A stretch of 64,000 bases of DNA from Dehalococcoidia bacterium (lineage in GTDB: Bacteria; Chloroflexota; Dehalococcoidia; SM23-28-2; RBG-16-64-32): positions 680,857-744,856 of the forward strand of contig OY762959.1 in the NCBI GenBank assembly GCA_963667205.1, read 5' to 3'. Both the position numbers and the translations under genes were made by a program. The notes beneath the pieces are model-generated. The model searched no databases. It was not told the origin of the DNA and was given only the letters and a program-made list of their open reading frames with translations. Shown one piece after another: positions 1,945-42,693 of the stretch; within the stretch, counting starts at the first letter, position 1, and each line of letters starts with the position of its first letter.

Positions 1945-3072
1945 ATGCTACTCGTCGCCCGCAAAAACCTGTTGGCGGAGAAGACACGCCTCGCGATTTC
2001 GATCGGTGGCATCGCCCTCTCGGTGTTCCTGATCGCCATCCTGCTGTCGCTCTTCCGGGGCTGGAGCGAGCGTGTGGGGAGCTTCGTCGAGGACGTGCCG
2101 GCGGACCTCTGGGTGGCCAGCGAGGGGACGACCGACTTCACCGCCGCCGCCTCGATTGTGCCGTCGTCGCTGGGGCTCCGGCTGGAGCTGATCCCGGAGA
2201 GCGACGTTGTGGCGCCGCTGATCGTGCGGCCGATGGAGATGTCGCACCTCGGCGGGGATCCCGACGACACGTTCGACGTTCACTTCGTGGGCTACAGCCC
2301 GGAGATCGGACTAGGCGGCCCGCTGGAGGTAACCGAAGGCAAGAGTCCGCCGGGCCCCGGCGAGATGATCGTCGACGAGCAGATGCACCGCCGCTTTGAC
2401 GTCGACATCGGCGACCGCCTGGTCCGCGGAACGAAGTCGCTGACGGTGGTGGGATACTCGAAAGGCGGCGACTTCGTCTACACGCAGGTGGGCCACGTGA
2501 CGATCGACACCGCGGTCGACTTCCTGGAGCTGGACCCGCCGTCACAGCGGACGTTCTTCTTGATGACGCTGAACGACCCGAGCGAACGGGAATCAGTGGC
2601 CCGGCGCATGGAGATCGTGCTGCCGGGCGTTGAGTTCATCACGGGCGAGTCGTTCGCGGCGGAGACGCGAGACCGCATCCTGGGCCAGATCCTGCCGATC
2701 CTGATCGTCGTGCTGATCGTCGCCTTCATCGTCGGACTGGCGGTGGCCGGGCTGACGATCTACACGGCGACGATCAAGAAGTCGCGCGAATACGGGATCC
2801 TGAAGGCCGAGGGCTTCACGAATCCGTACCTGTATCGGGTCGTGTTCGAGCAGAGCATGGTCACCGGTGTGCTCGGGTTCCTGATAGGCGCCGGCATCAC
2901 GGTCTTCGTTGGTCCGGTGGCGCAGGCCCAGGTCCCGCAGTTCGTCGTATTCGTACGCTGGCAAGACATCATTGGCATCGCGGGCGCCACACTGCTCATG
3001 GCGCTGATCGCTGCCTACATCACCGTTAGAAGGCTAACAAGCATTGACCCAGTCTCCGTCTTCAAAGGCTGA
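1945..3072 (+). CDS. ABC transporter permease, FtsX/DevC-like
   Basis: 375 aa with an N-terminal TM, a large periplasmic loop and 3 C-terminal TMs. Overlaps the start of the ATPase gene. Confidence 0.8.
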   Translation: MLLVARKNLLAEKTRLAISIGGIALSVFLIAILLSLFRGWSERVGSFVEDVPADLWVASEGTTDFTAAASIVPSSLGLRLELIPESDVVAPLIVRPMEMSHLGGDPDDTFDVHFVGYSPEIGLGGPLEVTEGKSPPGPGEMIVDEQMHRRFDVDIGDRLVRGTKSLTVVGYSKGGDFVYTQVGHVTIDTAVDFLELDPPSQRTFFLMTLNDPSERESVARRMEIVLPGVEFITGESFAAETRDRILGQILPILIVVLIVAFIVGLAVAGLTIYTATIKKSREYGILKAEGFTNPYLYRVVFEQSMVTGVLGFLIGAGITVFVGPVAQAQVPQFVVFVRWQDIIGIAGATLLMALIAAYITVRRLTSIDPVSVFKG

Positions 3073-3787
3073 CGCGCCCGAGCCGGCGCAGGAGCGGCAG
3101 ACGATCCTGCGGCTGGACGGCGTCAGCAAGATCTACCGCTCCGGCGAGTTCGAAGTGAAGGCGATCGACGACGTCACGTTCCACGTTCGGGGCGGTGAGA
3201 TCGTCGCCGTCATGGGCCCGTCTGGATCCGGCAAGACGACGCTGCTGACGATCGCGGGGGCGCTACTGACGCCCACCGTGGGGCGGGTAGAGGTCTGCGG
3301 GATCGACGTCAGCGGCATGAGCGAGAGCCAACTGGCCGGTATAAGGCGGAACAAGGTTGGGTTCGTCTACCAGAGCTCCAACCTGCTGGAGGCGCTTACC
3401 GCGCTGGAAAACGTGCGCATCGTCTCCCAAAATCACGCAGACGACAAGCAGGCTGCGGGCGAGCGAGCGAAGGATGTGCTGGAGATGTTCGGCCTGGGCC
3501 ACCGAATGAACGCGCTGCCGAAGAATATGAGCGACGGCGAGAAGCAGCGAGTCGCCATCGCCCGGGCACTGGCGAAGGACCCCGAGCTGCTGCTGGCGGA
3601 CGAGCCGACGGCGAATCTGGACGCGAAACGTGGGCACGAGGTGATGGAGCTGCTGCGCCAGAAGGCGATGGAGCTGAACAAGGCGGTGGTCGTCGTCTCG
3701 CACGACAACCGCATCCGGCAGTTCGCAGACCGCGTGGTGTGGCTGGAGGACGGCCGCCTGAGCGACGACGAAACGCACTCCGTCTGA
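3044..3787 (+). CDS. ABC transporter ATP-binding protein (MacB/LolD/DevA-like)
   Basis: Walker A GPSGSGKTTLL, ABC signature LSDGEKQRVAIARAL, Walker B LLLADEPT. Confidence 0.88.
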   Translation: MTQSPSSKADAPEPAQERQTILRLDGVSKIYRSGEFEVKAIDDVTFHVRGGEIVAVMGPSGSGKTTLLTIAGALLTPTVGRVEVCGIDVSGMSESQLAGIRRNKVGFVYQSSNLLEALTALENVRIVSQNHADDKQAAGERAKDVLEMFGLGHRMNALPKNMSDGEKQRVAIARALAKDPELLLADEPTANLDAKRGHEVMELLRQKAMELNKAVVVVSHDNRIRQFADRVVWLEDGRLSDDETHSV

Positions 3788-3968
3788 GACTCGCCCGAGC
3801 CAGGCGCCGGAGGCTCCGGATCGCATGGGCCAAATGGCGCTATCCAGTTGCTCGAAGATGGCGTCCCGCCACAGGAAAGCGCGGTCTTCGGGCGGGCGCG
3901 ACTTCACCAAGGCTGAACCGTCCCTTACCCGCCGCCGGTAACCGCTTCGTTATGTCCGCGGTCTCCCC

Positions 3969-4964
3969 TTGTGGATGGAGATTCAGCGGGTGCTCAAGCG
4001 ATTAGTCCTCGGCGGCGCCGTCCTTGCCGCCTTGCTCAGCGCAGTTTCGCTCGCCGGCGACTTCCACCGGGGAGCAACGGCCAGCGTTCAGCTCAGCCCG
4101 GAGGAGCAGGCGTTCACCGTCCTGCTCACCGACTATCGGGCGGAGAACGGGCTGGGCCCGCTGAGTATCGACTCCAGCATCCAGGCGGCGGCGGAGTGGA
4201 TGAGCACCGACATGGGCGAGGAGAACTACTTCAGTCACACCGACTCGCTCGGCCGTAGTCCGTGGGACCGAATGTGCGACTTCGGTTACTGCTACAACAC
4301 ATGGAAGGGCGAGAACATCGCGGCCGGCTACGCGTCGGCCCAGACGGTATTCGACGCCTGGAGGAACTCCCCCGGCCACAACGCGAACATGCTCAGCGAC
4401 AAATTCGTCGTGATTGGGATCGCGCGCGTGCAGACTGCCGGTAGCACTTACGGCTACTACTGGACGAGCGACTTCGGCGGCTATCTCGCGGAGCCACCGC
4501 CGCCGCCCGCGCCGACCGACACGCCCGGCCCCACTCCATCGTCCGCACCGACCGACACGCCAAGCCCCACGCCATCGTCCGCACCGACGGCCACGGTGAC
4601 GCCTTCACCAACACCTACGCCGTCGCCCTCAACACCGCCTGCAACACCCACGCCTGTTGTGACGCCGGAACCGACGCCGACGGCGACACCGCCGCTGGCG
4701 TTCGCCAGAGCGGACGTCAACTGTGATGGCGAGGTGACAGCGGCGGACGCGCTGGCGCTGCTGCGCTACGCCGGCGAGCTGCCCGTCGAGACGCCGCCGG
4801 GATGTCCGGCGATTGGTGAAGGGGCCGGCGCTGCGCAGACGGCATCCGCCGGGCCGGCTCTGCAGGGCGACGTCGACTGCAACTCAGTCGTTGACGCCGC
4901 CGACGCCCGGGGCGCGCTCCTCAGCGCCAGCGACATCGAGATGCCCTCGGCCTGCGACGCCTAG
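3969..4964 (+). CDS. Secreted CAP/SCP-domain protein (YkwD-like) with Pro/Thr linker and C-terminal Cys-dockerin-like double repeat
   Basis: Signal peptide. YRAENGL...NYFSHTD...PGHNANML motifs of bacterial CAP (YkwD) domains. 42-nt tandem repeats encode PTDTP(G/S)PTPSSA. C-terminal DVNCDGEVTAADALALLRYAG...GCP and GDVDCNSVVDAADA...CDA. Confidence 0.75.
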   Translation: MWMEIQRVLKRLVLGGAVLAALLSAVSLAGDFHRGATASVQLSPEEQAFTVLLTDYRAENGLGPLSIDSSIQAAAEWMSTDMGEENYFSHTDSLGRSPWDRMCDFGYCYNTWKGENIAAGYASAQTVFDAWRNSPGHNANMLSDKFVVIGIARVQTAGSTYGYYWTSDFGGYLAEPPPPPAPTDTPGPTPSSAPTDTPSPTPSSAPTATVTPSPTPTPSPSTPPATPTPVVTPEPTPTATPPLAFARADVNCDGEVTAADALALLRYAGELPVETPPGCPAIGEGAGAAQTASAGPALQGDVDCNSVVDAADARGALLSASDIEMPSACDA

Positions 4965-5025
4965 CGCGCTGATCCGCCCGAGCCGGGAGCGCGTAGTATT
5001 GGCTGATGAGTCCGTTTGGGCGACA

Positions 5026-6838
5026 ATGGCTCGTGAGCTCCTCAATGCACACACCCATCGTGACGGACGTGTCGTGAAGCGAGTGCTCTTGCTCCTGCCG
5101 CTGCTCCTGATCAGCGCGCTTGTGCTCCAGGATGGGCTCGAGGCACCGGCACCCTCGTCCGCGGACGGAGAAGTGATTCCGGGGCGCTACATCGTGCTGT
5201 TGGAGCCGGGCACCGACCGCGCCCGGGCCGCGCGGGACCTCGACGTCGACGTGCGCGCGTTCTACGGGAGCGCGGTCAGCGGGTTCTCCGCAGAGATGAG
5301 CGCCGAGCGCGCCGCCGAGATCGCCGAGTCGCCGTCCGTGGCGCTGGTTGAGCCTGTGAGGCGGGTGCGGATCGCGCTGCACGAGAACGCCTTCCAGACG
5401 CTGATCGAGGGCGTCGACCGCGTCGACCTCGACGAGAACGCCGCGGCCGGCGTCGGCCTGCCGGCAGGACCCGACGTGGACGCCGATATCGCAATCATCG
5501 ACACCGGGATCGACCTCGACCACCCGGACCTCAACGCGCTGCCGGGGTTCGGTGCGTATGAGGCACGGCTGCCGGACGATCCGGAAACGGGCTTCCCCGT
5601 CTACGGCGACTGCAACACGGCGAGCGACCCGGAAGACGAGCACGGGCACGGAACGCATGTGGCGGGCACGGCAGGAGCGATCGACAACGAGATCGGCGTC
5701 GTCGGGACGGCCCCGGGCGCGCGCCTCTGGGCCGTGCGCGTGCTGCGCGACGATGGCTTTGGCTGCGACGAGGACGTGCTGCTGGGCATCGACTGGGTGA
5801 CGGAACGCAAGATGGAGTTCGACGAGAGCCCCGGCGACGGCGACGGCGACCCCGGCATCAACTTTACGGTCGCCAATATGAGCCTCGGAGGAGACCCCAG
5901 CCCGGTGCTGTGCGTAGGCATCGCGAACTCCGTGGCCGCGGGCGTGATGTACGCCGTCGCGGCCGGCAACGACGCGGCCGCCGCCTCTGTCAGCGGCCCT
6001 GCTGACTGCGCCGACGTGGTCACCGTCTCCGCCTTCGCGGACTACGATGGGCAGCCCGGTGGGCTGGCGGCAAACGTGTTCGTTGACAGGCTCCGGCCAG
6101 CCGCATCCGGACGACGGTTTCGCGTTGTTCAGCAACTACGGTCCGCTGGTGGAGATTGCCGCGCCGGGTGTATGCATTACGTCGACCTACTTGACGTCGC
6201 CGGACGGGGAGTACGCTGCTCTCAGCGGCACGAGCATGGCCACGCCGCACGTAGCGGGCGCTCTCGCGCTGTTCAAGGCCTCGACGGGCTACGGCGGGCC
6301 GTACGACGGCGCCAGCCTGATGGCGGCGCTCACCGCCGCCGGCTGGACGCGGCCGCAGAACAGCGCCTGCGGCTTCTCCGGCGACCCGGACGGCTCGCCG
6401 GAGGCGGTGCTCTACATGGGGACCTCCTGCTCGACGGCGACGTCTACGCCATCACCAACGCCGTCTCCATCGCCGACACCGACTGAGTCGCCGACGCCGA
6501 GCGCCTCCCCGTCGCCGAGCCCGACGCCGACGGCAAGCCCATCGCCAACGCCGACGTCAACGCCGCAAGCGCTCGACCCGGCCGATATCAACTGTGACCA
6601 CGCCGTCACGGGCAGCGATTCGCTGATCCTGATCCTCTTCGCGGCGAACGTGGAGACGACGCTCTCGCCCGGCTGTCCGCCGATCGGCGCTCTCTCAGTG
6701 CCGGGTTCGGCCGTGGTGCCGGCGCAGCTGCGCGGCGACATGGACTGCAGCGGCGCCGTCGACGTGAACGACGCGTTGGTGATCCTGAGGCTGCTGGGAG
6801 GCGTCGCAGCGCCGACGGAGATGCCCTGCGCCAGCTGA
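5026..6838 (+). CDS. Subtilisin-like serine protease (peptidase S8 with I9 propeptide) with +1 frameshift near 6068-6085; C-terminal Cys-dockerin-like module
   Basis: Asp ([11 protein letters not shown]) and His ([11 protein letters not shown]) are in frame A (4813..6486). Ser ([13 protein letters not shown]) and FSNYGP are in frame B (6047..6838). The junction lies between [10 protein letters not shown] and [15 protein letters not shown]. An alternative GTG start at 5074 gives [12 protein letters not shown]. Confidence 0.75.
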
Positions 6839-6857
6839 GCGACGCCCGCCTCCGCCG

Positions 6858-7826
6858 CTAGCCGAGCCGGTCAACCGAGAGCACCACGACCTGGTCGGCG
6901 CCCGCGCAGGCGACGTAGAGCGCCCCCCCCGGGCCGACGGCGACGTCCCATGGGCCGGCCGACACCGCCGCCGTCTCGACCACTTCGTTCGTGGTGGTGT
7001 CGATGACCGAGACGCTTGCAGAGAGCGAGTTAGCGACGTAGGCGCGGCCGCGTTCGGTATCGAGGGCGACGGCGTAGGGCCCGCTCTCGACCGCGACCGT
7101 GGCGATCGCCGCGCCGGTTTCGACGTCCACGACCGAGACGGTAGAGGCTTCCGAATTGGCGACGTAGAGGCGCCCCGCGGCGGCATCGAGAGCGAGGCCA
7201 CGCGGCCGGCCGTCGACGTCGAAGCGCTGGGTGACCGCGCCGGAGGCCGGGTCGAAGACGAGTACCTGGTCCGCGGCCGCGTCGGATGCGTAGAGTTCGC
7301 TGCCGTCGGGAGACAGCTCGAGGCCCCAGGGCTCGTCGACGCCCGTCAAGGTGTCAACGACGGCCCCGACGCGGCCATCGATCACAGAGATCGAGCGGCC
7401 CTCAGCGTTGGCGACGTAGATCAGGTTGGCGGCTTCGTCCACGGCGATCGCCCAGGGTTGCCGGTCAACGGGAACGATGGCGACCGTATCGGCCGTCTCT
7501 GGACTGATCACGTTCACGGTCTCGGTGAAGGAGTTAGTGACGTAGACGAGGCCGCTCTCGCGGTTGACGGCGATCGATGAGGGGCCGCTACCTACCGACA
7601 GGGTGTTGATCGCCATCTGCGTATCGAGGTCGATGATCGAGACGCTTGATGCGCCCTTGTTCACGGCGTAGAGGCGGCCACGCTGAGCATCGATGGCCAG
7701 GCCCCAGGGCTTGGTGCCGGTCGCGATCGCCGGTGCCGGATCGTCGCCGTCTTTGCCGCCGTTGCCGGAGGAGCAGGCGACGAAGAGCGCGGAGAGCAGG
7801 ATCAGGGCGCAGGTAACGGCGCGCAT
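6858..7826 (-). CDS. YVTN-family beta-propeller repeat lipoprotein
   Basis: ATG at 7826 gives MRAVTCALILLSALFVACSS (lipobox). Seven repeats of the LYVAN..S.VSVID type (YVTN 40-residue repeat). Confidence 0.7.
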   Translation of the reverse strand: MRAVTCALILLSALFVACSSGNGGKDGDDPAPAIATGTKPWGLAIDAQRGRLYAVNKGASSVSIIDLDTQMAINTLSVGSGPSSIAVNRESGLVYVTNSFTETVNVISPETADTVAIVPVDRQPWAIAVDEAANLIYVANAEGRSISVIDGRVGAVVDTLTGVDEPWGLELSPDGSELYASDAAADQVLVFDPASGAVTQRFDVDGRPRGLALDAAAGRLYVANSEASTVSVVDVETGAAIATVAVESGPYAVALDTERGRAYVANSLSASVSVIDTTTNEVVETAAVSAGPWDVAVGPGGALYVACAGADQVVVLSVDRLG

Positions 7827-8045
7827 CGCGGCTGAGTATAGCAAACGGGCGCCGCCACAGGCCGGTGCGTTGCCGCCGCCGGGAGCCGGAGCCGATTTCA
7901 ACGGCGACGGCACCGTCCTCCGTGTTGATGTGCGTGCCTGAGCGCTATACGATCAAACGGCGTGCCTATCCCAGACTGCCCCTTCGCCCCACAGGCCCTC
8001 GCCAGAGGGCAGTCCAGCCCTGCGCGCACGCTGGGACTGCTGGCG

Positions 8046-9101
8046 ATGACGCTGACCGCCTGCGCGCTTCTCCTCGCCTGCAGCGCCAGCGGCGAGTTCG
8101 CCCCGCCGACTGCAACACCGCTTCCATCAGCGACGCCGACGGGCGCTCAGATCGCCTACGTCTCGGGCGAGAGTACCTCAACGATCCGTCTGGTCAATGA
8201 GTTCGCGCTCAACGACGTGAGCATCTCCCAGCCCGGCGGCGTCCGCAGCACCTACCCTCGATGGTCTCCGGACGACGAGCAGATCGCGTTCGTCGCGCCC
8301 CGGGACGGCCAGCTCGAAATCTTCGTCATGGCGTCAGACGGAACGCTGTTGCGGCGGTTGACGAACGACCCGGAGGCGGACCTCCTTCCTGCGTGGTCGC
8401 CAGACGGTTCTCAGATCGCCTTCATCTCTTCGCGTGATGGGAACTCCGAGATATACGTTATGAACGCCGACGGCTCCCAACCGACGCGTCTGACAAACGA
8501 CCCGGCGCTGGCCGCCTACCCAACGTGGTCCCCGGACGGCTCGCAGATCGCCTTCGCATCGGACCGCGCCGGCAATCGGGGGATCTACCTTATGAACGCC
8601 GACGGCAGCGATGTGCGCCGGCTCACCGAATCGCCGCAGCTGGACGTTTCGCCGAAGTGGTCGCCGGACGGCACACGTATCGCTTTCGTGTCGTTCCGGT
8701 CCGGCAACGGTGACATCTACACGGTGGGAGTGGATGGTGAGAACCTTGTACCCGTCACGTCGGCGGAGACGCTGGAGCGAGCGATCGCCTGGTCACCCGA
8801 CGGCTCGCGCATCGCTTACGAGGCGGTCTCCGAGGATGGCACGTCGATCCACATCGTGAATGCCGACGGCAGCGAGGACGAAACGTTGACCGACGAGTTC
8901 TCGGTGGCTACGGACCCGGATTGGTCGCCGGACGGAACGCGGATCGCCTTCATGGCGGAGGTGGACGGCAATCGGGACGTCTACACGATCGAGGTCTTCC
9001 TCGATGACGGTTCGATCGTTGGCGTGACCAGCCAGGCCGAAGCCGATGCCGCCGCCACACCGGAGATCGATCTTAGCTCGTGCCCGGACGCCGTGAGCTA
9101 G
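8046..9101 (+). CDS. TolB-like beta-propeller lipoprotein (PD40 repeats)
   Basis: ATG at 8046 gives MTLTACALLLACSAS. Repeated WSPDGSQIAF / IYVMNADGS blades. Confidence 0.7.
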   Translation: MTLTACALLLACSASGEFAPPTATPLPSATPTGAQIAYVSGESTSTIRLVNEFALNDVSISQPGGVRSTYPRWSPDDEQIAFVAPRDGQLEIFVMASDGTLLRRLTNDPEADLLPAWSPDGSQIAFISSRDGNSEIYVMNADGSQPTRLTNDPALAAYPTWSPDGSQIAFASDRAGNRGIYLMNADGSDVRRLTESPQLDVSPKWSPDGTRIAFVSFRSGNGDIYTVGVDGENLVPVTSAETLERAIAWSPDGSRIAYEAVSEDGTSIHIVNADGSEDETLTDEFSVATDPDWSPDGTRIAFMAEVDGNRDVYTIEVFLDDGSIVGVTSQAEADAAATPEIDLSSCPDAVS

Positions 9102-10449: not shown

Positions 10450-12066
10450 ATGCCAGACAAGTTGATCGCCCGCCGTGGCCGACGAGGCGAGTGGATGTGG
10501 GACGCACACCCATCCGCCGCCTCACAGGACGCTGCCCTGGCGCAAGGTGCCCCTCCAGGCACCGGGCGCGGGTTTAGCTTCCCTCGGATTCGGCTGCCAG
10601 GCCTTTCACTGCCCCGTCTACGGCTGCCTTCGATTTCGCTGCCGACCCTGCGGCTGCCGAGTATCTCGCTCCCGCGGCCACGGCCAACTCAGCCCGTCGC
10701 GAGGCCGCGCACGCATCCGGCCCGGCCGCAGACGCGCAGATTTTCACCATCTCAGTTCAGTCTGCCCAGCGTCAGACTGCCATCGGTCAGGTTGCCGCGG
10801 ATGAGGCTGCCCCACCTGCGGTTGCCTACGATCACGCGGCCCCATCTCAAGATGCCAACGGCGCCGCGGACTCCTTCGCTCACACTGCCCCGACTGCCGC
10901 AACGAAAACGACCGAGTTTCAGCCTTCCCAGCATCGATGTAGGATCACGCTTTCCGGCGCTCGGCCGCTTCGCCAGCCGCGTCACATCTCGCGACTTCTG
11001 GACACTGCGGCGCGTAGACGAGGCCGGCCAAGAGCGCGACTACACTCGCTTCGCCGTCGTCCTGGCCGGCCTCTCACTCGTGGCGCTGGCGGCAACCGCG
11101 GTAATCGTCCTCGCCTCGCTCGTCTCCGGAGGCAGCTCCGAAGGGCCCGGCGGACCATTTAGCATCTCGCCGACGACATCGTCGCCGGCCGACACGCCCG
11201 CGCCCAGCGGCCCGACCGAGGCGGTGTGGATCGACGCGCAAATGCTGGAGGACGATCCGCTGGCAGCGGCGACGATCCTCCGGAACACGGCCCTGGCGAC
11301 CGGCGCCACTGAGTTCGTTGCGGCGGCCAATCACATCAGGCAGGCCAGCGTCCTCGGGCGCGCGCTGAACGAGGACTTCCTTTGCCCGCTCCTGGACCAC
11401 TTCAACGTCGACTACGCATCCGGGCCGGCCGGTGCGCCTGCCTGCGGCGGCGCGATCGTACAGCCGCCGCCGGACATCGACGTCTCGCTGGGGCTCTGGG
11501 CGAACGATCTGAGCGCCTGGGAGTTCGATGGGCTGCCGGAAGGCGCCGCCAGCTACAACGAAGGCGACGAAGCTCCGTTCATCCTCAGCTGGGCGGCCGA
11601 GCCGGACGAAGAGTACACCATCGCGATCACGTACGCCTGCCGCGCCGGCGGAGTGCCCGCCATCGACTTCATATCCGGCGTGCCGGCGGCCGACGCGGAG
11701 ATCTTCGCGGCCAACGGCGGCCCAGGCGAAAAGCTACCGGGCGCCGCCGTGCCGTTGCTCAACACGCCCGACCTTGACGTTCGCGAGGGCGGCATCCCTC
11801 TCCTCTACCTTTACGGAGGACACTTCCTCCTGCTGCCTCAGGGCCCCGGTCCGGCGGCCGAGTGTGAGGATGAGCAGACGATCACTGTTCCCGTCCAGGC
11901 CGATGCCGATGAGATAGTCCTGATGGGCAGCGTCAAGCTTGCCGACGCCGACGACCACGACGGCCAGGGGGCCTCAGATGCCACCGCCAGCATCAGTCTG
12001 AGCGCCTCGGTCAGCTCTGTGGGCACGGCTACTGCCGCGTTCGAGCCGGGCGTCATCGCCCCCTGA
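10450..12066 (+). CDS. Single-pass membrane protein with N-terminal array of about 17 LPxx(R/S) pentapeptide repeats and roughly 310-aa extracytoplasmic domain
   Basis: Residues about 45-160 read LPGLS LPRLR LPSIS LPTLR LPSIS LPRPR ... LPSVR LPSVR LPRMR LPHLR LPTIT, matching a 15-nt DNA periodicity. One TM follows (FAVVLAGLSLVALAATAVIVLASLV). The C-terminal domain has no recognisable family. Confidence 0.6.
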   Translation: MPDKLIARRGRRGEWMWDAHPSAASQDAALAQGAPPGTGRGFSFPRIRLPGLSLPRLRLPSISLPTLRLPSISLPRPRPTQPVARPRTHPARPQTRRFSPSQFSLPSVRLPSVRLPRMRLPHLRLPTITRPHLKMPTAPRTPSLTLPRLPQRKRPSFSLPSIDVGSRFPALGRFASRVTSRDFWTLRRVDEAGQERDYTRFAVVLAGLSLVALAATAVIVLASLVSGGSSEGPGGPFSISPTTSSPADTPAPSGPTEAVWIDAQMLEDDPLAAATILRNTALATGATEFVAAANHIRQASVLGRALNEDFLCPLLDHFNVDYASGPAGAPACGGAIVQPPPDIDVSLGLWANDLSAWEFDGLPEGAASYNEGDEAPFILSWAAEPDEEYTIAITYACRAGGVPAIDFISGVPAADAEIFAANGGPGEKLPGAAVPLLNTPDLDVREGGIPLLYLYGGHFLLLPQGPGPAAECEDEQTITVPVQADADEIVLMGSVKLADADDHDGQGASDATASISLSASVSSVGTATAAFEPGVIAP

Positions 12067-12580: not shown

Positions 12581-12678
12581 ACGGACGCGCCGCCCTCTAG
12601 AGGGGGCCAAACGGCGAATGGCGCACGGAAAAGCCACCGTGCCGGAATCCAGCGCGCGCGGCCGTTCGTGACGTTCCT

Positions 12679-13317
12679 ATGATTCGATCCAGGAAGCCAA
12701 CGACACTCACTCCCATCACCACCGCGATCTTCGTCCTCGCCGCCATCGCGGCGCTGGCCGTTCTCTCCATCGGCGGAGGCGAAGCAGAGGCCGGTATCAC
12801 TCACACCGTTTTCGTCAACAACGACCGCTTCTGCGACAGCGCGGGCTCCGATTGTTCGCAACCGCACTCGATCCAGATCAGCGCTGGGAACACGGTCCAG
12901 TGGCTCGACGGCCAGAGCGGCGGCACCCACACCGTGACGCAGTGTACCGGCGACGGCACAGGATGCCCCGCTGGCGGCGGCTTCGATAGCGGCGTCAAGA
13001 GCGATCCGAAGGCCGGCTACCTCGCACACGTTTTCCCGGACGAAGGCACGTTCTTCTTCCGCTGCCAGATCCATGGCAACTCGATGCGTGGGATAGTGAT
13101 GGTTATCGGCCCGGCAACGGACACGCCGACTCCTGTACCGGGGACACCAACAGATTCGCCCGGCGATGATTCGCCAACGGCCACTCCGGCAGACGTCCCA
13201 AAGACCGGCGGCGAACCGGGGTCGGGCGGCTTGCCGCTGATATTGGTCGTCCTGGCGTTGGGTGGCGCTTTGGCGGTGGCCGGCTCCAGTGCGCTCTACG
13301 CCGCTCGGCGACGCTAG
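12679..13317 (+). CDS. Cupredoxin (type-1 copper, plastocyanin/azurin-like) with C-terminal LPXTG-like sorting signal
   Basis: Signal/TM, then cupredoxin ligand pattern H..C-Q-I-H-G-N-S-M (FRCQIHGNSMRGIV). P/T-rich linker. VPKTGG followed by a hydrophobic stretch (LPLILVVLALGGALAVAG) and an RRR tail. Confidence 0.75.
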   Translation: MIRSRKPTTLTPITTAIFVLAAIAALAVLSIGGGEAEAGITHTVFVNNDRFCDSAGSDCSQPHSIQISAGNTVQWLDGQSGGTHTVTQCTGDGTGCPAGGGFDSGVKSDPKAGYLAHVFPDEGTFFFRCQIHGNSMRGIVMVIGPATDTPTPVPGTPTDSPGDDSPTATPADVPKTGGEPGSGGLPLILVVLALGGALAVAGSSALYAARRR

Positions 13318-13605: not shown

Positions 13606-13849
13606 ACGCCGGCGTGCCAGCGACTACCGAGGCTCTGCGATGACAACGACAGGCAGTTTCTGCTCAACACTCCACTTCAGCGGTCTTCCCATGCCGACGT
13701 CCTTTCGTCACGACCAGACCACCTCGAATCGACCGACTGGCTGAGATTCGACGGCTATTGCCGATACTAAAGGTAGGCCAAATGGCCAAGAAGCTACTCG
13801 GGCGTTCCGAGCGCGGCCTGTCCTACTCATATTTAGAAAGGCGGACGAA

Positions 13850-14801
13850 ATGGTATCGGATCGTAAACTCAAGGCCAATCGTCGTAACGCAAAGCGTTCG
13901 ACCGGACCCAAGAATTCAACGCGCAGCAGGTACAACGCCCGGCAGCATTGCATCCTATCGAGGGCGGCTATCATCGAGGATGGCGACGCAAAGGAGGACC
14001 CACGCGAGCTGGAATCTCTCCTGGAGGCGCTCTGGAAGGACCGCGAGCCCGTGGGTGCGATGGAGGAGTTCCCTGGTGGATCGCATTGCCTCCTGTCAGT
14101 GGCGCCTGCGTCGGGCTCAGCTAGCCGAAGTGGGCGAGATCAGGCGGGTCGCCGACAGCGCCGTGATGGACGCTCTGGACTCTACCGTTGACAGATACGA
14201 ATTATCGATGGAGAAAAAGGAGATGGGCCCCCCTTCCGTCGTTGGCGGAAGCAGCGAGCGCGAATTGGCCAAGACCACTCATGGGATCGCCCACATCCAG
14301 ATTGTCCTTGATCGCATGAGCGGCTTGGTCGAAGATCAAGGAACCCTCACCAAGAATCAACTAACTGTAGTGGCCACTATCTACGGCCGTCGGGTAGGCG
14401 GCTTCGCAGTCTTCCTCTCAAACATCGCGGCCATGTCAACGCGTGGCCTGCAGGCGAAGGACGACGAGGAGCCGGACGGCAAGGAGCCAGATACACGCCG
14501 TGACATTCTTTCGCCAGGAGTCGGCAACGAGCTCCTCCTGGCCTGGATCGACGCGGAAATCGCGAGGCTAAGGAACGAAGCTGGCTTAGTGATCGAGAGG
14601 GAGGGGCTCGAACTGCACGCCACGGTACTGTCGCGGCAGCTTCCCAGTGACAAGGTCCTTGAAAAGATCGGCAGGTACGAGACAACGATTGAGCGCCAGA
14701 TGTATCGAACGTTGAAGGAGCTCCAGGGGCTACAGGCTGCCCGGCGGACGTTCGACTCGCTTGGGCGCTTCGGACAACGGAGTGTGATGGCACTAGAATG
14801 A
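13850..14801 (+). CDS. Hypothetical protein, low-GC (foreign-looking), with +1 frameshift near 14068
   Basis: MVSDRKLKANRRNAKRSTGPKN...MEEF (frame of 13850) continues as LVDRIASCQWRLRRAQ... (frame of 13758). There is an extra C in TTCCCTGG. GC is clearly below the local mean. No recognisable domain. Confidence 0.45.
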
Positions 14802-24068: not shown

Positions 24069-24731
24069 GTGCTACGCATTCGACTGTCCCGGGTAGGAAA
24101 GAGGAAACAGCCTGCCTACCGCATCGTGGTGACCGACCGCCGCAACCCCCGCGAGGGCGCCCACCTGGAGGTGATCGGCCACTTCAACCCGCTTACCGAT
24201 CCGCCGACGGTCAAGATCAAGGACGAGCGCGCGATCCACTGGCTCAAGGTCGGCGCGATGCCGTCGGACACGGCGGCCAGGATTCTTACCAAGGCGGGCC
24301 TCATGGAGCAGGCCGGACGAGAGCCGTTCGTCTACGTCGGCAAGCAGGTGCCGAAGGGCCAGAAGAACCCGAAGAAGGCCCGTAAGGAGGCAGAGGAGGG
24401 CGGCGCGCCCGCCGCGGCGGTAGCGTCCGCACCGGCCGCCAAGGTGAAGGCTGAGGCACCAGCCGAGGAGCCCGCAGCAGAAGCTCCGGCGGTAGAAAGA
24501 GCCCGCAGCCGAAGAGCCCGCAGCCGAAGAGCCCGCTGCCGAAGAGCCTGCAGCCGAAGAGCCCGCAGCCCGGCCGAAGAGCCCGCAGCCGAAGAGCCCG
24601 CAGCCGAAGAGCCCCAGGCCGAAGAGCCCGCAGCCGAAGAGCCCGCAGCCGAAGAGCCCGAGGAGGCAACGGCTGAGGAGCCGGCCGCAGAAGAGCCAGC
24701 GGCCGAGGAGAAGACCAAGGGAAAAAGCTAG
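24069..24731 (+). CDS. rpsP: 30S ribosomal protein S16 with about 130-aa low-complexity C-terminal extension (AEEPA repeats)
   Basis: GTG start. MLRIRLSRVGKRKQPAYRIVV.. S16 core is about 85 aa. The tail is encoded by a GAAGAGCCCGCAGCC 15-nt tandem array. It is read in two frames (RARSRRARSRR.. then AEEPAAEEP..) because of compensating indels at ~24497 and ~24570. Confidence 0.85.
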   Translation: MLRIRLSRVGKRKQPAYRIVVTDRRNPREGAHLEVIGHFNPLTDPPTVKIKDERAIHWLKVGAMPSDTAARILTKAGLMEQAGREPFVYVGKQVPKGQKNPKKARKEAEEGGAPAAAVASAPAAKVKAEAPAEEPAAEAPAVERARSRRARSRRARCRRACSRRARSPAEEPAAEEPAAEEPQAEEPAAEEPAAEEPEEATAEEPAAEEPAAEEKTKGKS

Positions 24732-25689: not shown

Positions 25690-25731
25690 CGGAGCCCCCG
25701 TAGCTCAGTGGAAAGAGCATCGGTTTCCTAA
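25690..25731 (+). repeat. attL: 42-bp direct repeat equal to the 5' half (positions -4 to 38) of tRNA-Arg(CCT)
   Basis: CGGAGCCCCCGTAGCTCAGTGGAAAGAGCATCGGTTTCCTAA is identical to 32458-32499. The sequence diverges immediately after the anticodon loop, so it is not a functional tRNA. Confidence 0.85.
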
Positions 25732-25998: not shown

Positions 25999-26372
25999 CT
26001 AAACGCCGACATCCCCGGCCGTGTCCGGAGATGTGATGACGTTGCCTGAGCTGCAGTTAGCGTCGCCGCAGTGCAGCACCTTCAGGTCGTCGTTGGTGCC
26101 GTCGTAGTAGCTGACGACCGGGTTGCCGCTGCCGTCCAGCGTCAGTGAGTTGAAGGAGCCCACAAGGCCCGTCGCATCAGGCACGTAATGACGTTGCCCG
26201 CGGCCATGACGACCCCCGCCAGCAGCACCCCCACCAGGGCGAGCGTCACCACGGCAGCGGTGAGCGGGGTTATTAGAAACCTTAGAACGGCGCGTCCAGT
26301 GGAGGACATGCCACACCCCCAATGTGTACGACAATGATACTGCTGATCATTCGGCGACACACAATCGTCCAT
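25999..26372 (-). pseudogene. Truncated, frameshifted fragment of the 43-aa Cys-repeat protein family (see 34381..36152)
   Basis: Signal/TM (ORF 26142..26372) followed in another frame by ..[48 protein letters not shown].. (ORF 25999..26334). About 1.5 repeats, then a stop. Confidence 0.45.
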
Positions 26373-26585: not shown

Positions 26586-28214
26586 TTATTCAACGACTAG
26601 AACCTCCGAGCCCATGAGGGGACACTCCGCCTCTTGCGTCACGCTAAGTCCAGCGTCGAAGCGCAGTACCTTGAGCGAGTCGACGGGTGTCACCTCGCCG
26701 CCGCAGTCCACGTCACCCCAAGGATGGGGGGACGCATTCTGCACATCGACGACCTGTCCGAAGTCCGGACAATCGCCGGTGTTGGTGCCCAGACCGGCGT
26801 CGAAGCGCAGAGTAAGCAGCGAGTCAACGGGGTCGGCGGAGCCGGAGCAGTTGCTGTCCCCCCAGGTCGCCTCGAGACCCTCAGGCAGCAGCCCGTGGAC
26901 GAAGATGTCGTCGACGCCATTCGTGTCGCCGGGCACCAGGTTGGTGGCGAACGACCGGAAGGCCACGACGAGTCCGTTGGCGCTGATGGCCGGGTCGAAG
27001 GAACCAGCGTCGCTCTCGCCGCTGTCGCTGCTGACACTAACTCGCGTCGTCTCGCCCGTCTCGCGGTCGTGGACGAAGACGTCGCTGACGCCGTTGGTGT
27101 CGCCGGGCACCAGGTTGCTGGCGAACGAGAAGAACGTGACATGGCGGCCGTCACCACTGATGTCCGGGGCAAAACTCTCCTCGTTGCTCTCGACGCCCGC
27201 GGTGCTCACGCTCACGCGGGTCGTTTCTCCGGTCTCCAGGTCGTATACGAAGATGTCGCTTCGGTCGTTCGTGTCGCCGGGCACGAGGTTGGTGGCGAAC
27301 GACCGGAAGGCCACGTATCGGCCTTCGCCGCTTATCGCGGCGTCAAAGCTGGCGCCGTTCGGCTCGACGCTAGCGGCACCGGCGCTAGAGCTGCGGAATA
27401 CCTAGCCATCGGAGTGAAGCGGTGTAACCTCGTTCGCCATGAGGTCCCATACCTGCAGAAACCCGGCACTTGCGAAAATGACTCGGCGGCCGTCGGCGCT
27501 AAAGGTGAGTTGGCAGGTGTCGTCGGGTTTGAAGCCCGTATGAATTACTATGCCCGTATCCAACCCCTCCACGTAGAGGCCTGCCCCCTGCGCCCCGCTC
27601 TCGGCATCGGCGTAGTAAACGACGCGGCGACCGCCGGGGCTGGTGGTCTTACCTAGTTTCGGGCATGTGTTGCCACCTTCAAAGAGGCCTAAATTGTCGA
27701 CGTCGAGGAAGCCTTTTATGGCGAATCCTGTGATAGCTAGCCCTAGGATGTCCTGATGGGATATTGCCGCGAGGCTCACGGAGAACTCGAAGGCAATCGC
27801 CTGTCCATCGTCACTGATGTCCGGGGAACGGCTGAAGTCATTACTACCACCGCCTATGCTATTCTCGCTGACGCGCAGGGTCTCGCCAGTGACTACGTCG
27901 CGGCGGAAGACGTCCAGGACCCCGTTCGTGTCGCCCAGGACAAGGTTCGTGGCGCTGGATTCGAAGGCCACGTAGCGGCCGTCGCCGCTGATGACAGGGG
28001 GGCCGCTGCCCGCGTCGGCCTGTCCGCCCTGGCTGTCCACGCTGATACGCTCGGTAATGGCAGCGGGCGACGCCTCGGTCGGGGCACCCGCCGGGAGCAG
28101 CATCGTGAGCAGGCCCAGCAGCGGCAGTAGAACGAGCCAGAACGACAGCGTACGGACTGGAGGGAGCGAGGAAGGGACGCGGCTAGGGAGCGGCTTCGTG
28201 GTCTCAGGGTGCAC
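26586..28214 (-). CDS. Secreted PD40-repeat beta-propeller protein with C-terminal Cys-dockerin-like module; single in-frame TAG at 27402-27404
   Basis: ORFs 27402..28214 and 26586..27314 are in the same frame. The translation is continuous across the TAG (..VTPLHSDG*VFRSSSAGAASVEPNGASFDAAISGEGRYVAFRSFATNLVPGDTN..). Repeats are of the ISGDGRYVAF.S.A.NLVPGDTNG..DVF type. Confidence 0.6.
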
Positions 28215-28578
28215 TGTGTAACCTCCTGGCCCACAGATCGGGCTCGGGCGTTAGGCCGACATTATATACCTCAGAGTGAGGGTGGCTAGGGGGACGCGCC
28301 TGTAAGGCCTTCCAGGTCCAGTACCGTTGCCAGGCAGTGCGTTGCCAGCGGATGACGGTCTCAGGCTGAACGAACACGACCGCCGACTGCCAGCGCGACC
28401 ACAGCTGGGAGAGGAATGACCAGAAGAGGCGGTCAGATGGGGCAAGCCTGGGTCGACGCGACTGGCGGGAGAGGACAGCGAGTTGCTGGCGGAGAGCCAG
28501 GTTCTCAAGGACGAGATGCCGTCGCGAGCTCAGGGCTGCGCGCAGGGCGGAGCCGAGGAGCGACAAGTAGGTGATCAA
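28204..28578 (-). mobile_element. IS transposase N-terminal fragment (rve/DDE-type, IS481-like), truncated
   Basis: ..LENLALRQQLAVLSRQSRRPRLAPSDRLFWSFLSQLWSRWQSAVVFVQPETVIRWQRTAWQRYWTWK.. is typical of the HTH N-termini of IS481-like transposases. Homology is lost after about 90 aa. No catalytic domain. Confidence 0.55.
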
Positions 28579-31007: not shown

Positions 31008-31226
31008 ATGAACAGCAAGCTGGCATATTCACTTGATGAAGTCGCGGAGCTACTTGGCGTCTCCCGCGCATCCGTCGATCGTGCCATTCGCGCCGGAAAG
31101 ATGCGCGTGGCACGGCTCGGCCACCGGACAGTTCGAGTGACGGACGAAGCTTTGCGTGACTACCTGAAGGCACACGAAGAGACTGGGCCGCGTGACAGGC
31201 AGAAAGGTACGGAAGGCGATGGGTAA
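31008..31226 (+). CDS. xis: Excisionase-type HTH protein
   Basis: MNSKLAYSLDEVAELLGVSRASVDRAIRAGKMRVARLGHRTVRVTDEALRDYLK. Overlaps the int start by 8 nt. Confidence 0.6.
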   Translation: MNSKLAYSLDEVAELLGVSRASVDRAIRAGKMRVARLGHRTVRVTDEALRDYLKAHEETGPRDRQKGTEGDG

Positions 31227-32364
31227 GAAGCGGGGTAACGCTGAAGGCAGCATCCACAAGCGCCGTGACAATCGCTGGGCAGCCACGATTCATCTGGGAT
31301 ACGAGAATGGGAAGCGAAAGAGACGAACGTACTACTCCAGTACGGGGCATGGCGCTGTAAAGAAGCTGGCCGCCGCGCAGCGGGCCCTTGATGGAGGGCT
31401 GCCTCTCCCCTCCGAGACCGCCACCGTGTCCGCGTTTCTCCGGGGCTGGGTCGATGGGTCTGTACGCCCAAAGCTCAGGCCAAGAACCTTCCAGTCGTAC
31501 CAGATGATCGTCGAGCGACACTTGGTGCCCGCACTGGGCCGGACTCGACTGACTCGGTTGACGCCCGACGCACTCGAAACCTACATGAACCGCAAGTTGG
31601 AGGACGGCCTGACACCTCTCACGATCCGCAATCATTTGGCTGTCTTGCGTAGCGCACTTAGTCAGGCGCTGAACCGGGGACTGGTCCAGCGAAATGTCGC
31701 CTCGCTCGTGACGCCGCCACGAGACAGGAAGCAGGAGGTTCAGCCTCTTAGTCCAGAGGAGGCGCGAGCCTTTCTCGACGCGGTCAAGGGCAACAGACTA
31801 GAGGCGCTGTATGGCCTCGCTCTGGGGTTGGGCCTCCGCCAGGGCGAAGCCCTTGGCCTCACGTGGGATGACATTGACCTGGAATCTGGAACATTGTCTG
31901 TCCGACATACACTTCAACGCTACGATCGTGCGTATCACCTGGACGAGCCGAAGACATCGAGATCGAGACGCACGATCGCGCTCCCACGCCCCCTGGTCAA
32001 GGCGCTGCGCGGCCACAGAACCCGTCAGGTCGAGGAGCGACTGCGAGCAGGGCAAGGCTGGGAGGGTGATCGTTGGAGTCTGATCTTCACGACGATGGCG
32101 GGCAAGCCACTCTCAAGTGCAGTCGTCACACATGGCTTCCAGGAGACCCTCGCGGCTGCCGGTCTTCCTCGACAGAAGTTCCATGATCTCCGGCACGCTG
32201 CTGCATCGTTTATGCTGGTTCAGGGCGTCGCTCTGAGAGTAGTCATGGAAGTGCTGGGCCACAGTGACATCGCGGTCACAGCTAACACGTACAGCCACGT
32301 AATGCCTGATCTCCAGAGGGACGCTACCGAGAGCGTCGGAGAGCTTCTCTGGGCCACTTCTTGA
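31219..32364 (+). CDS. int: Tyrosine-type site-specific integrase
   Basis: SAM-like N-domain. Catalytic R...HxxR...Y (..HDLRHAAASFMLVQGVALRVVMEVLGHSDIAVTANTYSHV). Lies 97 nt upstream of the tRNA-Arg start. Confidence 0.9.
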   Translation: MGKKRGNAEGSIHKRRDNRWAATIHLGYENGKRKRRTYYSSTGHGAVKKLAAAQRALDGGLPLPSETATVSAFLRGWVDGSVRPKLRPRTFQSYQMIVERHLVPALGRTRLTRLTPDALETYMNRKLEDGLTPLTIRNHLAVLRSALSQALNRGLVQRNVASLVTPPRDRKQEVQPLSPEEARAFLDAVKGNRLEALYGLALGLGLRQGEALGLTWDDIDLESGTLSVRHTLQRYDRAYHLDEPKTSRSRRTIALPRPLVKALRGHRTRQVEERLRAGQGWEGDRWSLIFTTMAGKPLSSAVVTHGFQETLAAAGLPRQKFHDLRHAAASFMLVQGVALRVVMEVLGHSDIAVTANTYSHVMPDLQRDATESVGELLWATS

Positions 32365-32403: not shown

Positions 32404-32461
32404 CCGAGGTCAGCGACTCGACGAGCGACCCCGTTCGAATCTAGAATGACTCGGAGCCCCC

Positions 32462-32537
32462 GTAGCTCAGTGGAAAGAGCATCGGTTTCCTAAACCGTGT
32501 GTCGCAGGTTCGAGTCCTGCCGGGGGCACCACTATTT
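32462..32537 (+). tRNA. tRNA-Arg (anticodon CCT), reconstituted at attR
   Basis: Acceptor GCCCCCG/CGGGGGC, D-arm GCTC/GAGC, anticodon loop TTCCTAA, T-loop TTCGAGT, CCA encoded. Its 5' 38 nt are duplicated at 25694-25731. Confidence 0.9.
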
Positions 32538-34380: not shown

Positions 34381-36152
34381 TCAGGTGAAGTCGAAGACTA
34401 GCTTCACATCGCTGCCCATGCCGGGGCAGTCCACCCCCTGGCTGACGCTCAGCCCGGCGTCGAAGCGCAGGATCTTCAGCGAGTCGACGGGCGAGACCTC
34501 ACCCGAGCAGTCGACGTCGCCCCACAGATGCAGCGAGGCATCCTGGACGTCGATGATCTGACCGAAGAGCGGGCAGTCGCCGGTGTCGGTGCTCAACCCG
34601 GCATCGGAACGCAGGGTGATCAGCGAGTCCACGGGATCGACGGCCACTGAGCAGTTGTTGTCGGCCCAGACCGCTTGCTGGGCGAAAGGCGTGGCGGTCG
34701 CCGTGGGAGTGGGCTCCGTCGTGAGAATGATCGGCTCGCCGACGTCGTGGTCGAAGTCGAGGGGCGAATCGAGGAGGAAGGAGCCGAAGCCGGTGATGCC
34801 CTTGATCTCTTCGTTGGTGCCACCGGGATTGATGCTGATGAAGTCGCCGACGTTGAACCCGGCTGCCGAGGCGACGTCGATCTCGCTGTCGCCGGCGGCG
34901 GCGCCGGCGATCGTCTCGGTCTCACTGGGCATCGTCGTGGGACTCGGGCTTGGGGGCTCAGCGTCGGGGTGGGCGAGACGGTCGCTGCGGCGCCGCAAGT
35001 GGCGCTGACGCAGTGCAGCACCTTCAGGTCGCCGTTGGAGACATCGTAGTAGCTGGCGACCGGGAAGCCGCTGGCGTCCAGCTTCAACGACATGTGGGCG
35101 CCGATGTTGCCCGGCCCGTCCGGAGAGGCGATAACGTTGCCGGCGCTGCAGGTGGCATCGCCGCAGTGGATCACCTTGACGTCCTCGTTGGTGACGTCGC
35201 GGTAGGCCACCACCGGATTGCCGGCGGCGTCGAGCTCCAACGAGCTAAACGCGCCAACGTTGTCCACACCGTCCGGGACCTTGATGACGTTACCCGGCTG
35301 CAGTTGGCGTTGCCGCAGTGGACGACTTTCAGGTGTTGTTGTTGGCGTCGTAGTAGCTGACGACCGGAAAACCAGCGTCGTCCAGCGCCAGCGACGGCCA
35401 CGATCCGACAAGGGCGGACGCGTCCACCGTAGTGATGACGTTGCCAGCGCTGCAGATGGGGTTGCCGCAGTGGATCACTCGCAGGTTGATGGGGAATGCC
35501 TGGTAGGCCACCACCGGGTTGCCGAGCGCGTCCAGCATCAGGGAAGGGAAGCTGGCGAAGATGCCGGTGTCGGGAGTGGTGATCGTGTTGCCCGCGCTAC
35601 AGTTCGGGTCGCTGCGGTGGAGGATCTTCAGGTCGCGGTTCGTGCTGTCGGTGTAGGCGACAATCGGATTGCCGGCCCCGTCCAGCGCAAGGGACGTAGA
35701 GAGAGCGACATCGTCCACCCCGTCCGGCGAGGTGATGGAGTTGACGCCAGCGCAGTTCGGATTGCTGCAGTGGATCACCTTCAGATCACCGTTGGTTCGA
35801 TCATGATAGCTGATCACCGGGTTGCCGCCCGCGTCCAGCACCAGCGACGTGCCTTCGCCGACTTCCGTCTGTGACCCGTCTACGGAGGTGATGACGTTGC
35901 CGGCGCCACAGCCGGGATCGCCGCAGTGCACCAACTTCAGGTCGCCGTTGGTTTCGTCCCAGTAGCTGATGACGGGACTGCCGCCGGCGTCCAGCGCCAT
36001 CGACGTGTACCCGCCGACACATCACCCACCGTGTCAACAGCGACGATGCTGGTGGTGCTGGCGCCGCCGGAGGGCGCGTGCCAGAGGAGGGCCGCGACCG
36101 CGAAGGCCGCGATCGCGGCAACGATCCAAAGCTGCGGCTTGACAAGCGTCAT
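34381..36152 (-). pseudogene. Secreted protein of tandem ~43-aa Cys-containing repeats (beta-propeller-like) plus C-terminal Cys-dockerin-like module; at least 4 frameshifts
   Basis: Signal peptide (ORF 35937..36152). Repeats G..SL.LD..GNPV.SY.D.TN.DLKV.HCGD..CSAGN.IT..D spread over ORFs 35329..36000, 35171..35401 and 34620..35411. Linker plus module in ORF 34381..34998. A 2-nt deletion relative to sister repeats is visible near 35300-35340. Confidence 0.6.
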
Positions 36153-42615: not shown

Positions 42616-42693
42616 TCCGCCGGCTGAATGGCGCTACCGGCGTATGCGGAGTCTACGGGGCACAACGACGGCCCGTCAACGTTGCGGACAGGC

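Follow-up and report, generated by a model that had tools for sequence, protein, structure and literature searches.

A four-cysteine dockerin module at the C-terminus of exported proteins in an uncultured Dehalococcoidia lineage, and candidate membrane-tethered cohesin partners

Introduction

Why do five exported proteins with unrelated N-terminal parts, encoded within 64,000 nucleotides of one bacterial genome, all end in the same cysteine-containing double repeat? The stretch in question comes from a Dehalococcoidia bacterium (contig OY762959.1 of assembly GCA_963667205.1, forward strand, positions 680,857 to 744,856) and is called the window below. The five proteins are a CAP protein, a subtilase, a PD40 propeller protein, a protein made of repeats of approximately 43 amino acids and a protein with a thrombospondin-type-3-like stretch. 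A first-pass annotation of the window had drawn attention to the module that they share, of which the copy on the CAP protein lies at 4710-4961. Sediments, aquifers, soils and the ocean all harbour Dehalococcoidia and related bacteria in abundance. Almost none of them has been cultured, and how they retain proteins at the cell surface is little understood. From comparisons of sequences and predicted folds we think it probable that the module belongs to the type I dockerins, as an extended form stapled by disulfides, and that it docks exported proteins onto membrane-tethered single cohesins at the cell surface when calcium is present.

Five C-terminal modules in the window

Translation of the five intervals named in the first-pass annotation reproduced the peptides quoted there and yielded exactly five C-terminal modules in the window. 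A six-frame motif scan found ten half-repeats, two in each module, together with one unrelated partial match at 26047-26064, within the remnant of a repeat protein. A hidden Markov model (HMM) built from 85 family members and run on six-frame translations of the window returned the same five modules (E approximately 1e-21 to 1e-50); no further match reached an E-value below 0.08. The module is roughly 90 residues long (approximately 92), with halves of approximately 37 residues. All five copies lie at the extreme C-terminus with a stop codon immediately after, and a Pro/Thr-rich linker precedes the module in three of the five carriers (the CAP protein, the subtilase and the 43-amino-acid-repeat protein).

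Alignment of the ten halves showed that D2, C5, D13 and C32 are invariant and that L15 and L18 are nearly so. The motif had been described as a cysteine in the loop and a second cysteine in a C-P motif in each half. The two cysteines were found in every half, but in the CAP and subtilase modules the second half, ending in '...SACDA' and '...MPCAS' respectively, keeps the second cysteine without C-P-x-x-G. The pattern D-x-[DN]-C-x(7,8)-D-x-[LR]-x(14,20)-C occurs ten times in the window and in none of 200 triplet shuffles of it. This rules out chance, low complexity or an effect of composition as the source of the motif, the danger against which the first-pass annotation had warned.

Identity of the module

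Each half of the module had been read as a dockerin calcium loop followed by a helix, and profile searches agree with this. Comparison with Pfam Dockerin_1 (PF00404), the check that had been proposed, was positive for the CAP copy (25.9 bits, above the cut-off of 22.9) and fell below the cut-off for the subtilase copy (17.6 bits), while the other three copies had no match. Pfam Dockerin_1 recognised 12 of 85 family members at E <= 0.01 (best 1.5e-10), missing approximately 86%. A profile of the five modules had 14 matches among PDB sequences. Eleven of these are dockerins, including every match below E 0.05, and the best is a dockerin from Ruminococcus flavefaciens (5m2s_B, E 6.7e-6). The GC-type dockerin anchor of NCBIfam is a dockerin-like C-terminal module with a conserved cysteine, found in non-cellulolytic bacteria. 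We rejected this anchor and known sorting domains as the identity of the module because the five copies had no meaningful NCBIfam match; at E <= 1 the search returned only an unrelated fimbrial-protein model, StgD, at 15 bits and far below its cut-off.

The anatomy of the repeat was read from 674 distinct halves. The calcium loop has D at position 1 (99%), D or N at position 3 (98%), C at position 4 (99%), S, G, D or N at position 5, G at position 6 (71%), D, N or T at position 9 (87%) and D at position 12 (99%). A helix with the consensus x-D-S/A-L-x-x-L-R-x-D-A-G-L follows the loop. After the helix there is an extension of approximately 12 residues that ends in C(99%)-P(95%)-x-[IMLF]-G(100%) over the same halves, placing the second cysteine 27 residues after the loop cysteine. 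This tandem of a 12-residue EF-hand-type calcium loop and a helix, by which dockerins are recognised, is present both in the alignment and in the structure model. From the loops we infer that the module binds calcium.

The structure model is an AlphaFold2 monomer of the module from the PD40 protein, made with an 85-sequence alignment. This prediction, of the kind that had been proposed as a check, is very confident, with a mean predicted local distance difference test score (pLDDT) of 95 and a predicted template modelling score of 0.85. Helices span residues 14-24 and 62-72, with short strands behind each. Foldseek comparison with the PDB returned dockerins as all of the top 33 matches, with probabilities up to 1.0 and target-normalised template modelling scores up to 0.81 at E-values of only approximately 0.03. 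The three-dimensional fold of a dockerin is thus seen in the predicted structure. Because sequence profile, repeat anatomy and predicted fold all agree, we identify the module, on profile and model evidence, as a dockerin and as a divergent branch of PF00404. To call it a family without description, as the first-pass annotation did, was therefore an overstatement.

The four cysteines per module had been suggested to form disulfides. Among 629 distinct half-repeats that cover both cysteine columns, both cysteines are kept in 627, both are lost in two (the second half of P0033, with G...TP, and the first half of P0039, with R...GP) and one alone is lost in none. Because the two cysteines are kept or lost together and never singly, a pattern that fits the suggestion, the loop cysteine and the C-P cysteine of the same half most likely form one disulfide per half.

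Distribution and cargo of the module

Searched by word index, a set of 5.8 billion proteins yielded 267 matches; those with a named source come from Chloroflexi or Dehalococcoidia genome bins, most of them under the name 'hypothetical protein'. Among 1.84 billion cluster representatives searched exhaustively with HMMER, 6278 matched at E <= 1e-3, 1919 of them at <= 1e-10 and 218 at <= 1e-30. The module is C-terminal in almost every full-length match listed, on proteins of 100-1431 amino acids. Two narrow peptide patterns were scanned against one genome per species, 185,579 species in all, and matched at 64 loci from only approximately eight genome bins. There were 15 loci in the Chloroflexota bin OFTM284, 22 in the Dehalococcoidia bin LejiaF_64_43 and 2 to 9 in each of B46T1L10, B9T1B11, SMAG_U14484 and B80T3L11, and the remainder came from two short contigs binned as Planctomycetota and one unclassified bin. 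At least 6 to 22 module loci were recovered in each well-sampled genome.

The module ends open reading frames (ORFs) of 300-990 amino acids in the scanned loci, and by a crude criterion most of these carriers begin with a hydrophobic segment. The word-indexed search also returned matches of 74-164 amino acids, mostly from contigs of approximately 1 kb. We rejected the possibility that these are free-standing small proteins because in long genome contigs the module ends the longer frames just described. The short matches are probably truncations of contigs or gene calls at the Pro/Thr linker, which has no start codons.

Pfam matched 39 families on 76 carriers. PD40 propellers were found on 14 of these carriers, beta-helix, NosD or PMP repeats on 11 or more and cohesin on two. 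Further cargo comprises BNR-like repeats, LTD (lamin-tail), RCC1, the DUF5122 propeller, S8, CAP, BACON and alpha/beta hydrolase domains. No glycoside hydrolase family is among the 25 of the 39 matched families that were listed.

Carrier genes are often neighbours of one another, and loci L043 and L013 each contain a run of five. These two loci and L014 and L021 contain head-to-tail arrays of three to five carriers that combine unrelated N-terminal domains with near-identical modules, an arrangement that suggests local duplication or recombination at the module. The CAP protein of the window (3969-4964) has an orthologue in OFTM284 (L006, 3332-4279). The two are 54% identical over 292 alignment columns that cover the CAP domain and extend into the linker and the module, with the CAP domain conserved best. 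They nonetheless end in different module subtypes, ADVNCDGEVT... in the window and WGDANCSGSADPVDSL..., the consensus 'WGD-x-NCSG' subtype, in OFTM284. The alignment indicates that the module of the CAP protein was replaced or diverged much faster than its cargo. Different subtypes on orthologous proteins imply that divergence or exchange of the modules is independent of the cargo.

Cohesins in related genomes

Cohesins, candidate partners for which a search had been advised, were found in related genomes, and some of their genes lie beside module genes or are fused to the module. Proteins from L037 (3203-4276) and L040 (3167-4282) consist of a signal peptide, a cohesin domain, a Pro/Thr linker and the module, and their cohesins score 27.3 and 24.3 bits with PF00963 (cut-off 24.1). 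Cohesins are likewise fused to the module in L029, P0358 and P0362. In L030, a locus of LejiaF_64_43, four cohesin genes (2026-3009, 4289-5287, 5158-6060 and 6111-6941) are arranged around a carrier at 3161-4285. They score 25.1, 21.0, 31.9 and 14.7 bits in gene order, two above and two below the cut-off, and all are homologous by a local HMM (E <= 5e-60). All four proteins have a signal peptide, a cohesin domain, a Gly/Pro-rich linker and a C-terminal hydrophobic helix with a basic tail. Cohesin genes of this one specific family occur in at least three module-carrying genome bins. Adjacency and fusion in these genomes would fit a pairing of cohesin and module.

A profile search with the cohesin domains of these loci returned 108 protein clusters, and the order signal peptide, cohesin, linker, transmembrane helix and RRR holds in 96 of them. 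The proteins are 226-338 amino acids long, consistent with a single cohesin domain. Named matches are entered at NCBI as 'cohesin domain-containing protein [Dehalococcoidia bacterium]'; NCBIfam gave no meaningful match on the cohesin anchors. Four of the 108 clusters end in the cysteine module and a few in other dockerin types. Two members of the cohesin family, P0339 and P0345, carry at their C-terminus another type of dockerin, whose last residues are '...GC'.

P0262 is identical to the product of L030 2026-3009 over the cohesin domain that was used as query. Its AlphaFold model has an N-terminal helix (residues 2-17), a beta-sandwich (29-189, pLDDT > 90), a disordered linker and a C-terminal helix (286-313). 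The top 50 PDB matches of this model are all cohesins, with E-values down to 2.5e-9. The proposed receptors therefore share with PF00963 both the profile match and the nine-stranded beta-sandwich fold. An exported beta-sandwich on a membrane tether is the architecture that would be expected of a receptor for dockerin-tagged proteins.

The Dehalococcoidia cohesin domains of L030, L037 and L040 contain two invariant cysteines, one near the first strand and one just after the last. Most of these cohesins have two calcium-loop-like D-x-N-x-D-G motifs (RDLNGDGxVDEG and GDVNGDGFFDG) before the last strand; the cohesin encoded at L030 4289-5287 is without this insert.

A docking model and its alternatives

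In the model that we favour, each module carries two 12-residue calcium loops of EF-hand type (D1, D/N3, C4, S/D/N/G5, G6, D/N/T9 and D12), each followed by a helix, and the disulfide of each half would pin the C-P-x-[IMLF]-G extension back onto the calcium loop. The module forms the C-terminal end of many unrelated proteins exported by the Sec route and is usually attached through a Pro/Thr linker. It would dock in the presence of calcium onto single-cohesin receptors that a C-terminal transmembrane helix and basic tail tether in the cytoplasmic membrane. Docking would keep the exported proteins at the cell surface, and the proteins that combine a cohesin with a module could act as adaptors.

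Several observations weigh against this model. No cohesin was found in the window with two HMMs on six-frame translations (best local E-value 1, which is noise), and Pfam detected none on the secreted or membrane ORFs at 10450-12066, 12601-13317, 13758-14801 and 36306-37379. Nor was any cohesin match traced to the window's own genome in two profile searches of 8000 word-sharing candidates each, a weak negative. Carriers appear to be more numerous than cohesins in the small parts of each genome that were examined. A Gly occupies loop position 5 in 10% of halves and would make calcium binding weaker. The pairing of the cysteines is drawn from only two independent double-loss events. At least three sequence subtypes of the module exist within the window, so that one receptor may not serve all of its modules. 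Indirect support for a common system of docking or surface assembly, as put forward in the first-pass annotation, comes from the membrane-anchored cohesins of related genomes, some of them beside carriers or fused to the module; a partner was not found in the window. We infer that the window's own genome nevertheless contains a cohesin.

The missing local partner is also what lends some weight to another explanation, namely that a module with a dockerin fold, stabilised by calcium and disulfides, works without cohesin, either by binding an S-layer, a glycan or a lipid-anchored protein or by doing no more than stabilising or oligomerising exoproteins. The C-P-x-x-G extension and the strongly conserved helix faces could make a non-classical binding surface, and a passage of PMC9012536, citing Peer et al. 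2009, describes the roles of dockerin-like modules in non-cellulolytic bacteria and archaea as unclear. Against such a scheme, one cohesin family recurs in module-bearing bins beside carriers (L030) or fused to the module (L037, L040, L029, P0358 and P0362), and those cohesins have a receptor-like architecture, an exported beta-sandwich with a membrane tether. We regard this explanation as rather unlikely.

A cleaved C-terminal signal for a dedicated export or sortase-like system, comparable by analogy to the C-terminal domains of the type IX secretion system or to PEP-CTERM, would also be strictly C-terminal, present on dozens of unrelated exoproteins per genome and restricted to a lineage, as the module is. 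Such a signal is very improbable here. The module has no transmembrane segment, hydrophobic segment or basic tail and forms a well-folded dockerin domain in the model, and no NCBIfam sorting-domain model (PEP-CTERM, LPXTG, GlyGly-CTERM and similar) matches it. The carriers have ordinary N-terminal signal peptides, as judged by eye, and other proteins of the window use other anchors: a lipobox-like LLAC (7962-9101) and VPKTGG with a transmembrane helix and RRR (12679-13317). Even less credible is a covalent surface mesh in which modules link carriers to each other by dockerin-dockerin contacts or intermolecular disulfides, for although four near-invariant cysteines per module and many carriers per genome would suit it, the two cysteines of a half are lost only together, as fits intramolecular pairs, and the monomer model is very confident without a partner.

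Docking of the module onto tethered cohesins, if it takes place, might be one element of a larger scheme. The uncultured Dehalococcoidia lineage might possess a self-contained, non-cellulosomal surface display that is its main route for keeping exoproteins on the cell, with stapled dockerins on many exported proteins of each genome (propellers, adhesin-like beta-helix proteins, proteases and CAP proteins), single cohesins on transmembrane tethers and adaptors as a second layer. We advance this tentatively, as a possibility falling a little short of an even chance. Belonging to the same joint reading, and just as tentative, is the idea that the module also moves with mobile DNA, one carrier of the window lying in an integrase island at a tRNA gene.

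Comparison with known systems

Type I cellulosomal dockerins (PF00404; for example Doc435, 4dh2_D, and Xyn10B, 2ccl_B, of Clostridium thermocellum) have halves of approximately 22 residues and modules of 60-70, whereas the corresponding lengths here are approximately 37 and 92. They have Gly at loop position 4, where the present module has Cys, and they lack its added C-P-x-x-G, the short strands after each helix and the four conserved cysteines. The carriers found here are, moreover, not carbohydrate-active enzymes.

The cysteine at the place of the canonical Gly had been presented as distinctive, but it is not unique. Ruminococcus flavefaciens dockerins (5m2s_B, 5n5p_B and 8ajy_B) share Cys at loop position 4 (WGDANCDG in 5m2s_B and GDVNCDG in 5n5p_B) and the preceding Trp-Gly. 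They differ in that no second cysteine or C-P motif is visible in the aligned segments, and they are cellulosomal dockerins of a Firmicute whose partners are multi-cohesin scaffoldins. A cellulosome combines dockerins on glycoside hydrolases with multi-cohesin scaffoldins; here no glycoside hydrolase family was among the 25 listed for the carriers, and the size of the cohesin proteins is consistent with single cohesins.

Non-cellulosomal cohesin-dockerin entries (e.g. 2xdh and 2ozn) appear among the structural matches. The Archaeoglobus fulgidus cohesin (2xdh), Clostridium perfringens NagH/NagJ (2ozn) and the pairs of anaerobic methanotrophic (ANME) archaea resemble the present system in their non-cellulose cargo and single-cohesin proteins. 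The cohesin here differs from those of such pairs in being carried on a C-terminal transmembrane helix with a basic tail and not on S-layer homology domains or a sortase signal, and the dockerin differs in its extended four-cysteine form, with at least 6 to 22 module loci per genome. According to PMC9012536, which cites Peer et al. 2009, Archaeoglobus, Clostridium perfringens and ANME archaea have established non-cellulosomal pairs, and many non-cellulolytic bacteria and archaea have dockerin-like modules. Cohesins and dockerins are regarded as general devices for protein assembly (PMC9012536).

In open-access text we found no paper that describes dockerins in Dehalococcoidia (one paper has both words, in another context) and none that describes a four-cysteine extended dockerin or single cohesins with a C-terminal transmembrane anchor. 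Non-cellulosomal pairs as such are no novelty; what is new would lie in the structure of the module and in the manner of anchoring, and it would not amount to a new principle. If the docking model is true, cohesin-dockerin display would account in one step for where many 'hypothetical' exoproteins of each genome are located. The module would also serve annotators as a marker because Pfam misses most copies of it, as given above, and most source-named matches are called hypothetical. Protein engineers could, in addition, gain a robust new binding pair in a compact disulfide-locked dockerin and its single-cohesin receptor.

The carrier genes of the window

The CAP gene (3969-4964, plus strand) encodes a signal peptide, a CAP/YkwD-type domain (Pfam CAP, E 6e-20; NCBIfam YkwD family), a long Pro/Thr linker and the C-terminal module (4710-4961, plus strand; family HMM E 2.8e-23). 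The first half of this module is at 4710-4820 (ADVNCDGEVTAADALALLRYAG...GCPAIGE) and the second at 4866-4961 (GDVDCNSVVDAADA...SACDA), both on the plus strand. The subtilase gene (4813-6838, plus strand) encodes a signal peptide, an inhibitor I9 propeptide, an S8 subtilase domain, a Pro/Thr/Ser linker and the module (6575-6835, plus strand; family HMM E 2e-26). It spans two frames, 4813-6486 and 6047-6838, with a frameshift at approximately 6043-6119, and Peptidase_S8 of Pfam matches with profile positions 6-181 in one frame and 187-259 in the other.

The other three carriers are on the minus strand. The PD40 gene (26586-28214) encodes a signal peptide, PD40-type propeller repeats that recur as 174-nucleotide units and a module (26589-26864, minus strand) of the consensus 'WGD-x-NCSG...PVDSL' subtype, the copy used for the structure model. 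An in-frame TAG lies at 27402-27404. The next gene (34381-36000) encodes the repeats of approximately 43 amino acids (weak BNR_4/DUF1936 matches), a short Pro/Thr linker and a module at 34384-34668, also on the minus strand (family HMM E 3.7e-49). It has two frameshifts in the assembly, between approximately 34990 and 35411. The last (41136-42743) encodes 535 amino acids without a Pfam family, in which a thrombospondin-type-3-like Asp-rich stretch, supported by weak NCBIfam thrombospondin-type-3 matches, precedes the most divergent module subtype (41139-41399, minus strand; family HMM E 3e-21).

Three of the five carrier genes, those of the subtilase, the PD40 protein and the 43-amino-acid-repeat protein, are thus interrupted in this assembly. 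A sister contig in ENA (ERZ25074053:ctg468160_5x_l, 219,959 nucleotides, labelled '5x') is approximately 99.9% identical to the window over the parts compared. The differences are mainly insertions or deletions of a single base, and one of these falls in a homopolymer run (AAACC versus AAACCC at 27527). Because the few differences between these near-identical assemblies are mostly of this kind, the frameshifts in the subtilase and 43-amino-acid-repeat genes are probably errors of long-read assembly. The TAG of the PD40 gene is common to both assemblies and may be real.

The window has a G+C content of 66%. A contig of 2,656,619 nucleotides (ERZ28669063:ctg54560) encodes a Ffh protein identical to that of the window. 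The TrmD sequence of the window belongs to a cluster at 90% identity in which every named member derives from a Chloroflexota/Dehalococcoidia genome bin. Conserved genes are only 78-82% identical in nucleotide sequence to those of OFTM284 and LejiaF_64_43, which indicates a different species of the same broader lineage.

A perfect 42-nucleotide direct repeat (25690-25731 and 32452-32493) duplicates the 5' part of a tRNA-Arg(CCT) gene at 32456-32531. The ORF at 31192-32364, which by eye resembles a tyrosine recombinase, abuts this gene. Between the repeats are 6.8 kb that hold the PD40 carrier, an insertion sequence fragment (28204-28578), two unknown ORFs and a remnant of 43-amino-acid repeats (25999-26334). 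This segment looks like an integrated island with a dockerin-tagged gene. In the sister contig an IS3-family element of approximately 1.29 kb (HTH_Tnp_1 and rve; L065 683-1967) sits within the PD40 carrier at window position approximately 26997, so that only an ORF of 126 amino acids with the module is left.

Other exported proteins and neighbouring genes

Beside the subtilase gene are two genes for exported beta-propellers without the module, one of NHL/YNCE type (6858-7913, minus strand) and one of PD40 type (7962-9101, plus strand). Their N-termini are lipoprotein-like (...LFVACSSG and ...LLLACSASG), suggesting that similar types of cargo use alternative anchors. The gene at 12679-13317 (plus strand) encodes a small cupredoxin/halocyanin-like protein (weak NCBIfam match) that ends in VPKTGG, a hydrophobic helix and RRR. 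This is a sortase-type signal, and the organism would therefore use at least one other route of surface anchoring.

The ORF at 10450-12066 (plus strand) encodes 538 amino acids with basic N-terminal 'LPS[IV]SLP/LPRxRLP' repeats, one transmembrane helix and an ectodomain of approximately 300 amino acids, and matched no Pfam family. The rpsP gene for ribosomal protein S16 (24069-24731, plus strand) encodes a C-terminal tail of more than 100 amino acids with Ala/Glu/Pro-rich 'AEEPA' repeats, and on sister contigs the rpsP products are called at 193-202 amino acids.

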